Part shown: in pieces, positions 6,373 through 6,582 of the stretch | How positions within the stretch are numbered: the stretch's first letter is position 1 | Layout: each line of letters starts with the position of its first letter | Virus record (IMG/VR): IMGVR_UViG_2648501498_000002 | DNA from: a virus | Taxonomy: Duplodnaviria; Heunggongvirae; Uroviricota; Caudoviricetes | DNA: 13,614 bases | Reading direction: 5' to 3' (one strand) | Translations under genes and position numbers: made by a program | Notes under the pieces: generated by a model | The model's database searches: none | Seen by the model: the letters and a program-made list of their open reading frames with translations, nothing else | What the model was told of the DNA's origin: nothing

Positions 6373-6401
6373 TTGACTTTTTTGTTTACTGTTTATTAAA
6401 A
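6373..6401 (+). promoter_or_regulatory. Candidate sigma70 promoter inside the cargo island
   Basis: TTGACT at 6373-6378 followed after 15-17 nt by the A/T-rich -10 candidates tattaa/ttaaaa (6394-6401). The -10 is weak, so this is a sequence-only call. Confidence 0.25.
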
Positions 6402-6555
6402 AATCAACCGCATGGTGAATCCTCCTTGGAGGGGCTAAATGATCGAGTTTTAAGGGCACGTAGCGAGTTCTGTTTGATCATTGCAGAACTTAGCGGGAGG
6501 CGCCATGCGTACATCACTAATGTTATTTCCTTCTATCATTTTCCTTGTGAGTTCT

Positions 6556-6582
6556 GGCTGCGCATGGCGCGGCCTTTTTTTT
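6556..6582 (+). terminator. Rho-independent terminator (tR'-like position, about 400 bp upstream of the holin)
   Basis: 7-bp GC-rich stem ggctgcg (6556-6562) / cgcggcc (6568-6574) with loop catgg, followed by eight T residues (6575-6582). Confidence 0.55.

Follow-up and report, generated by a model that had tools for sequence, protein, structure and literature searches.

The window analysed here, a 13,614-nt stretch of viral DNA (IMG/VR record IMGVR_UViG_2648501498_000002), is the late region of a lambdoid prophage, and the unit at positions 6373–6582 within it is very likely the pasD1 gene, a moron-like small RNA (sRNA) cassette. Positions 6410–6582 of the + strand are identical at 173 of 173 nucleotides to PasD1 from prophage PP4 of EPEC E2348/69 (NC_011601.1:1060260–1060432), an Hfq-binding sRNA that was defined in that strain through RNA-seq coverage, Northern blotting and Hfq RIL-seq (Pearl Mizrahi 2021, PMC8550237), and whose EHEC homologue is EcOnc13. 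Table S6 of that study lists PasD1 at these coordinates as a 173-nt, + strand RNA of prophage PP4, with CATGCGCAGCCAGAACTCACAAGG as the Northern probe. The unit is real, functional by homology and already described. The initial annotation of the window had offered a short structured RNA as an alternative to a late-transcription leader, and this alternative was borne out, the unit being PasD1, a discrete promoter-to-terminator unit; the ends predicted there, at about 6408 and 6582, compare with published PasD1 ends that map to 6410 and 6582. The unit comprises the following features.

6373–6378, + strand: −35-like hexamer TTGACT of the putative pasD1 promoter, read from the sequence
6396–6402, + strand: −10-like A/T block (TTAAAA / TAAAAA), 7–8 nt before the RNA 5′ end
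6410–6582, + strand: pasD1 small RNA gene, 173 nt, by identity to published PasD1
6410–6508, + strand: structured 5′ domain, from the MFE fold and the Rfam consensus structure
6410–6417 / 6501–6508, + strand: closing helix GCAUGGUG / CGCCAUGC, part of the 5′ domain
6421–6424 / 6429–6432, + strand: stem-loop CCTC / GAGG, part of the 5′ domain
6438–6444 / 6476–6482, + strand: long-range strand-loop pairing of AAUGAUC with the hairpin loop GAUCAUU, from covariation
6466–6472 / 6484–6490, + strand: perfect 7-bp hairpin AGTTCTG / CAGAACT, part of the 5′ domain
6500–6509 / 6561–6570, + strand: closing-helix 3′ strand GCGCCAUGCG and terminator core CGCAUGGCGC, a perfect 10-nt complement
6543–6566, + strand: Northern probe target CCTTGTGAGTTCTGGCTGCGCATG, the complement of the published probe
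6546–6551, + strand: predicted seed UGUGAG, in a single-stranded pyrimidine-rich stretch just before the terminator
6556–6574 with T8 at 6575–6582, + strand: Rho-independent terminator GGCTGCGC-ATG-GCGCGGCC then T8, from the consensus scan

Genomic context and distribution

The unit lies between the antiterminator gene Q and the lysis genes, among the following neighbours.

4507–5130, + strand: Q (PF03589, E 4e-58)
5173–5214, + strand: lambda-type pR′ (TTGACT 5173–5178, GAAACT 5196–5201, AATAAT 5209–5214)
5382–6125: membrane protein of 247 aa (WP_001302581), no Pfam family
6211–6369: DUF3927 / 'TciB-like' protein of 52 aa
6669–6778, + strand: nanS-p (SASA) esterase remnant; deletion junction 6693/6694
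6991–7206: P21-type holin
7206–7703: lysozyme

The published synteny of PasD has Q (PF03589) upstream and holin/lysozyme downstream, with LpxR within 10 kb in >98% of matches. Q, the P21-type holin and the lysozyme are all present here, and the ORF list holds no LpxR-sized minus-strand ORF in the window, where the upstream span is only ~6.4 kb. The cargo between Q and PasD consists of the 247-aa membrane protein, a predicted product conserved in phage 434 and both E2348/69 prophages, and of the DUF3927 protein; a literature search for the label 'TciB' returned phage P1 gene names and unrelated papers only. Between Q and the lysis genes, the late region forms a compact cassette of the membrane protein, DUF3927, PasD1 and an Esr41-like sRNA on the antisense strand.

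PasD2 (prophage PP2) and phage 434 carry a common allele with four differences from PasD1, among them one 1-nt indel and one change that turns a G·U pair of the terminator stem into A-U, the stem being kept and the terminator loop of this allele being AUU. Phage 434 has the same module, ~98% identical over window positions ~5250 to 6693 and followed there by a full SASA/nanS-p esterase.

Of 5,426 complete E. coli genomes, 678 (~12%) carry the 173-nt sequence, in 908 copies that are all chromosomal, and the carriers include O157, O26, O103, O111 and O121 strains; the plasmid collection gave one match, on a 1.4-Mb record. The practical value of the finding lies mostly in annotation, as this is a validated sRNA gene that RefSeq does not annotate. 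In the sampled records a 'hypothetical protein' alone lies under the match, probably a spurious antisense CDS in 14EC007 and E2348/69, and the phage 434 record places a putative membrane protein on PasD.

Relation to the STnc100 family

The lead to PasD came from an Rfam scan by E-value, which brought up STnc100; the literature on STnc100 then pointed to the PasD sRNAs. At gathering thresholds, Rfam gave no match in the whole window. The STnc100 covariance model (RF02076) aligned to 6380–6585 over model positions 1–206 of 206 with 37.7 bits (E 1.4e-6), below the STnc100 gathering score of 47 that marks membership; the PasD copies of 434 and E2348/69 also fall below that score, and STnc100-type loci reach 77–165 bits. 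Structurally, PasD is related to Rfam STnc100 at a sub-threshold level, and the two have been reported as structural homologues (Zhu, Shabalina and Storz 2026, bioRxiv 10.64898/2026.05.13.724894).

BLAST of 6360–6600 against phage genomes retrieved only 7 records, even in distant mode, because the STnc100 relatives are too diverged for BLAST. A gapped pattern scan of viral contigs found 120 STnc100-type loci and, owing to its gap setting, no PasD-type loci; these 120 and the PasD-type copies already fetched make up a family set of 129 extracted copies. Scanning genome contigs with the 16-mer CATGGTGAATCCNCCT produced chance matches only, in unrelated phyla.

The PasD/STnc100 family is modular, with a conserved 5′ domain joined to interchangeable 3′ seed/terminator modules, and the exact PasD1 terminator is also found behind STnc100-type 5′ domains. 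Relatives occupy many positions that do not adjoin Q, often in tandem, and members are located after stx2B, after tRNA genes and in tandem arrays. Two such arrays lie just downstream of phage tRNA genes, with four STnc100 copies in L129 (2265–3380) and two in L137 (811–1488), each copy having a different middle or 3′ module.

Expression data from E2348/69

In E2348/69, PasD1 is reported to give a band of the expected size on Northern blots, to depend on Hfq for its stability and to form Hfq RIL-seq chimeras (PMC8550237), and the abundance of pasD1 and pasD2 in the hfq mutant was nearly unchanged, with log2FC of −0.18 and +0.55 (Table S2 of the same study). RNA-seq of E2348/69 in the activating condition (PMC8550237) gave the following baseMean values.

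pasD1: 8,652
pasD2: 11,017
Q: 69 and 6
Membrane gene upstream: 226 and 147
DUF3927 gene (tciB): 37
Esterase downstream: 102
Holin: 3.5

Across the terminator the signal thus drops from ~11,000 (pasD2) to 102 (esterase); the PasD RNA of E2348/69 is an abundant, sharply bounded species, and its terminator is efficient.

The RIL-seq targets of PasD1 share a CUCACA motif (PMC8550237, Fig. S5 and Table S7), to which the predicted seed UGUGAG at 6546–6551 is complementary, and the chimeric reads of PasD1 at 1060384–1060434 correspond to window positions 6534–6584. Its reported partners in EPEC are aceE, uspA, gltI, spr, coaE, cesF, tir, bfpB and perB (PMC8550237).

Promoter and 5′ end

The TTGACT −35 at 6373 and the A/T-rich −10 of the initial annotation are both present where it had placed them. 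Two −10 candidates overlap, TTAAAA at 6396–6401 with a 17-nt spacer and TAAAAA at 6397–6402 with an 18-nt spacer; TTGACT at 6373–6378 is identical in E2348/69 PP2 and phage 434, and a related upstream class has TTGATT at equal spacing. The pasD1 promoter escaped the consensus promoter scan, since hexamer position 6 of its −10 is not T. Neither promoter-like sites (5, with 5.6 expected from shuffles) nor terminator-like sites (3, with 2.3 expected) were enriched in the 4900–7300 interval, so the motifs alone are not statistically compelling.

The upstream flanks of the PasD/STnc100 copies (n = 129) fall into 16 dissimilar classes, across which the only conserved upstream block, of the TTTGTTAAAA type, occupies −17 to −8 counted from GCAUGG. 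The geometry of this block fits an extended −10 (TGnTAAAAN) in most classes; in that of the window, TTAAAA is instead spaced 17 nt from a −35 close to consensus (TTGACT or TTGATT). RpoD ChIP-exo signal has been reported at Salmonella STnc100 promoters (PMC10794520). Taken with the abundance step in E2348/69, the conserved −10 block and the RpoD signal favour an autonomous pasD1 promoter.

PasD1 might instead have no promoter of its own and be cut, as a stable 3′ fragment, out of read-through transcripts of the membrane and DUF3927 genes upstream, begun at pR′ or a moron promoter and ended at the same 6556–6582 terminator. The weak −10 is consistent with this, as are the degenerate state of the ancestral tR′, the lack of any terminator call between pR′ (5173) and 6556, and the bracketing of PasD2 with its upstream gene in Table S6 of PMC8550237; the 5′ end of PasD1 in EPEC was moreover taken from RNA-seq coverage, not from a mapped triphosphate end (PMC8550237). 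We nevertheless regard processing as unlikely, as the sRNA signal in E2348/69 stands 40- to 300-fold over that of the genes immediately upstream, the A/T-rich block keeps its fixed distance from GCAUGG in 16 unrelated upstream contexts, and RpoD ChIP-exo peaks lie at the Salmonella STnc100 copies. The favoured route, initiation at a promoter belonging to pasD1, and processing could coexist.

RNA structure and terminator

Both hairpins that had been noted from the sequence, agttctg/cagaact and cctc-cttg-gagg, lie at the positions claimed for them and appear in the MFE fold. The gain in folding of the 173-nt RNA over shuffles is modest (z = −2.07). Among the STnc100 consensus helices, the closing helix, stem-loop 1, the central hairpin and the terminator are present in PasD1, and the CCGGG/CCCGG hairpin is absent. 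The 7-bp hairpin is the central hairpin of the family, and in a set of 14 representatives its pairing is kept by compensatory changes at two positions (GC/AU and AU/UA/GC).

In at least five sequence classes, the strand that follows stem-loop 1 is complementary to the loop of the central hairpin. The MAFFT/RNAalifold alignment is out of register at this point, and the pairing was gauged by the energies of cognate and non-cognate duplexes, which averaged −9.4 and −3.6 kcal/mol, respectively; the pair in the window itself has −8.7 kcal/mol, a value reached by 0.1% of loop shuffles. Because 1 nt alone joins this pairing to the 3′ arm of the hairpin, the two are hard to combine and the full pseudoknot looks sterically strained, so that an alternative conformation is possible. 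This covarying pairing in the 5′ domain is a small addition to published knowledge of PasD/STnc100, and the A/T-rich −10 block at a fixed distance from the 5′ end in 16 upstream classes is another; the preprint by Zhu and co-authors (bioRxiv 10.64898/2026.05.13.724894) makes no mention of a promoter or a pseudoknot.

The strong intrinsic terminator of the initial annotation, with its stem at 6556–6574 followed by T8, is present as claimed. The consensus scan describes it as 8 pairs, 7 of them G-C, with loop AUG and U8, and calls it as the sole + strand terminator between Q and 6925; positions 6556–6582 are the probable Hfq-binding 3′ end of the RNA. A further terminator-like hairpin (6925–6953, + strand), made up of 11 pairs, a 7-nt loop and then TTTTTATTG, stops 38 nt short of the holin start codon at 6991.

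A cis-acting role, as an attenuator or sensor leader for the nanS-p esterase and the lysis genes with the sRNA as its terminated product, would fit the position of the element in 434, PP2 and Stx phages, where the esterase follows it directly; the 5′ domain contains covarying alternative or tertiary pairings, and the 3′ strand of the closing helix (6500–6509) is a perfect 10-nt complement of the terminator core (6561–6570). However, the antiterminator fold proved weak under constrained folding, at −49.3 kcal/mol compared to −56.9 kcal/mol for the MFE, that is, 7.6 kcal/mol worse when forced. The complementarity is also centrally mismatched in PasD2 and shrinks to just 6 bp in Evi-type relatives, many family copies have other 3′ modules and downstream sequences, and the element is intact here even though the esterase is deleted. 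We consider an attenuator very improbable. That the PasD/STnc100 5′ domain acts more generally as a conformational switch or sensor, beyond its role as a stabilising scaffold, is a speculation that we also hold to be improbable. Its basis is the strand-loop pairing, which is hard to combine with the equally covarying hairpin, and the ability of the closing-helix 3′ strand in PasD1 to pair with the terminator core instead. Were it true, the element would govern both termination and the passage of polymerase into nanS-p and the lysis genes, or would toggle the sRNA between an active and an inactive form, and the trans-acting sRNA would be just one output.

Coding potential

The unit could in principle encode a protein, either a small membrane protein on the + strand or the 132-aa product of a minus-strand ORF at 6450–6848 (PGAP). 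The + strand candidates are 64 aa from TTG 6426, as annotated in phage 434, and 36 aa from ATG 6505, which stands 4 nt behind a strong Shine-Dalgarno-like GGGAGG. CDS annotations are present in phage 434 and RefSeq, and some STnc100 copies in EDL933 have ribosome-footprint/transcript ratios >1 (PMC5331693). The initial annotation had named coding sequence in relatives as what would speak against its reading; a CDS is indeed annotated in phage 434, but the overlapping ORFs lack conservation: PasD1 and PasD2 are set apart by a 1-nt indel that falls within both + strand ORFs, cutting the 36-aa ORF to 14 aa and changing the frame of the C-terminal half of the 64-aa ORF. STnc100-type relatives read the same terminator in another frame, and both the ATG and GGGAGG fall in conserved RNA helices. 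No Pfam matches were obtained, the minus-strand ORF giving a sub-threshold Sid-5 hit only, and this ORF extends across the deletion junction and is marked in PP2 as a pseudogene. A protein-coding role is extremely improbable on these grounds, with the variable ribosome coverage of the EDL933 STnc100 copies leaving a small-peptide option marginally open.

The minus-strand 'hypothetical protein' at 6450–6848 (132 aa, WP_033816266) is antisense to PasD1, and its PP2 counterpart is flagged as frameshifted/partial. At 6762–6851 on the minus strand lies an Esr41-like element (RF02676, 32.3 bits compared to a gathering score of 102) with a terminator GCCAGCGCAG...CUGCGCUGGC and a U-run. The locus is identical in E2348/69, where it is counted under the minus-strand CDS E2348C_1013 (baseMean 2,064); its signal falls 7.5-fold in the hfq mutant, and RIL-seq chimeras map to positions equivalent to window 6763–6804. 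The element gave no alignment to PasA or PasC and probably represents a second Hfq-dependent sRNA, as yet unnamed, and the 6450–6848 CDS is probably a spurious call that hides two sRNA genes.

Position in the late region

The initial annotation had placed a lambda-type pR′ directly after Q, and alignment with lambda confirmed it at 5173–5214, the similarity covering Q, the −35 and inter-hexamer region and the first bases transcribed, and being lost thereafter. Further downstream, at 5248–5269, we found a remnant of a 434/82-type tR′ that has lost its stem and T-run. The tR′ of phage 434 reads AACCCGCUGCCGAGUGGGU8 and is degenerate in the window, and the 6S/tR′ of lambda is absent; with tR′ degenerate, pR′ may drive constitutive transcription of the membrane and DUF3927 genes in the lysogen. 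The consensus scan called no terminator from pR′ to 6556, and folding of the pR′ leader (5210–5385) gave none. Downstream of pR′, no consensus terminator precedes that of pasD1. Given the degenerate tR′ and the absence of terminator calls before 6556, the pasD1 terminator is probably the first barrier to unmodified pR′ transcripts, a role that it would have taken over from tR′.

A different proposal had been that the lysis cassette brought its own module, a second Q-dependent, pR′/tR′-like late leader encoding a 6S-like RNA and serving as an antiterminator loading site. Several features invite this comparison: the −35 TTGACT is that of lambda pR′ and of the window's own pR′, the 173-nt length is near that of lambda 6S RNA (194 nt), the unit ends 409 bp before the holin, and its terminator is the first consensus one downstream of pR′. 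Yet comparison of pasD1 with lambda Q-S, with the phage 82/434 leaders and with window 5130–5400 showed similarity limited to a 10-nt stretch, TTGACTTTTT, and the T-run, and neither a Q-binding element nor a −10-like pause element lines up in the pasD1 unit. The true pR′, with a lambda-type inter-hexamer region and a pause-like AATAAT, is at 5173–5214, and pasD1 begins 1.24 kb after Q with two genes between, which is not the position of a late-leader promoter. Moreover, family members lie after stx2B, after tRNA genes and in tandem arrays rather than beside Q genes. We therefore give almost no credence to a second late leader; what survives of the idea is that the pasD1 terminator would be the first consensus one that pR′ transcripts meet.

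The spacing argument likewise stands in part. The distance from terminator to holin start, put at about 400 bp, measures 409 bp (6582 to 6991), but it is lambda-like because the nanS-p esterase has been deleted. Window 6551–6693 aligns to PP2 3298–3440, through the esterase start codon plus 22 nt, and window 6694–6778 to the ~72 nt at the end of the esterase and a further 15 nt. About 1.75 kb is deleted relative to phage 434 and E2348/69 PP2, in both of which the same terminator is ~2.4 kb from the holin. The same esterase scar is present in E2348/69 PP4 and phage Evi. A fusion scar had also been suspected at 6373–6582; none lies there, and the real scar is at 6693/6694, 111 nt past the terminator.

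Proposed course of transcription

In the lysogen, sigma-70 polymerase would start at or near G6410 from TTGACT (6373) and the A/T-rich −10 (6396–6402), and transcription would end at the terminator at 6556–6582, yielding a 173-nt RNA, as shown for the identical sequence in EPEC E2348/69. The RNA is expected to consist of the structured 5′ domain, a single-stranded U/C-rich stretch with UGUGAG, and an Hfq-binding terminator hairpin with U8, and together with Hfq it would pair in trans with its putative targets, mRNAs from core and virulence genes that contain CUCACA. After induction, Q-modified polymerase from pR′ (5173) would have to pass the pasD1 terminator to reach the holin, endolysin and Rz genes.

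Comparison with known systems

The closest known counterpart is prophage PP4 of E2348/69, in which the RNA is identical and, a short way upstream of the −35, a single T of the window is replaced by C. The gene order is shared as well (lambda-type Q, the WP_001302581 membrane protein, DUF3927, PasD1, P21-type holin, lysozyme), and PP4, like the window, is without the nanS-p esterase.

With the lambda pR′-tR′ leader (6S RNA), PasD1 has in common that it is a short RNA (~75–195 nt class) made between Q and the lysis genes, and by analogy both would end at an intrinsic terminator that Q-modified polymerase has to override. In contrast to the lambda leader, PasD1 does not adjoin Q, has no sequence homology with it, no Q-binding element and no pause element, and apparently has its own, Q-independent promoter. 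StxS of the Stx2 phage Sp5 is reportedly another short RNA between Q and the lysis genes, ending at an intrinsic terminator that Q-modified polymerase has to pass.

STnc100, including EcOnc27/sRNA103 downstream of stx2B, shares with PasD1 the 5′ end GCAUGGUGAAUCC, the closing helix, the first stem-loop, the covarying hairpin and the GGGAGG box. The location class is also the same, namely the Q-to-lysis interval of lambdoid prophages, often before nanS-p, and Evi-type STnc100 members carry the exact PasD1 terminator. PasD1 differs from STnc100 in having no CCGGG...CCCGG hairpin, a shorter first loop, and another middle segment and seed region.
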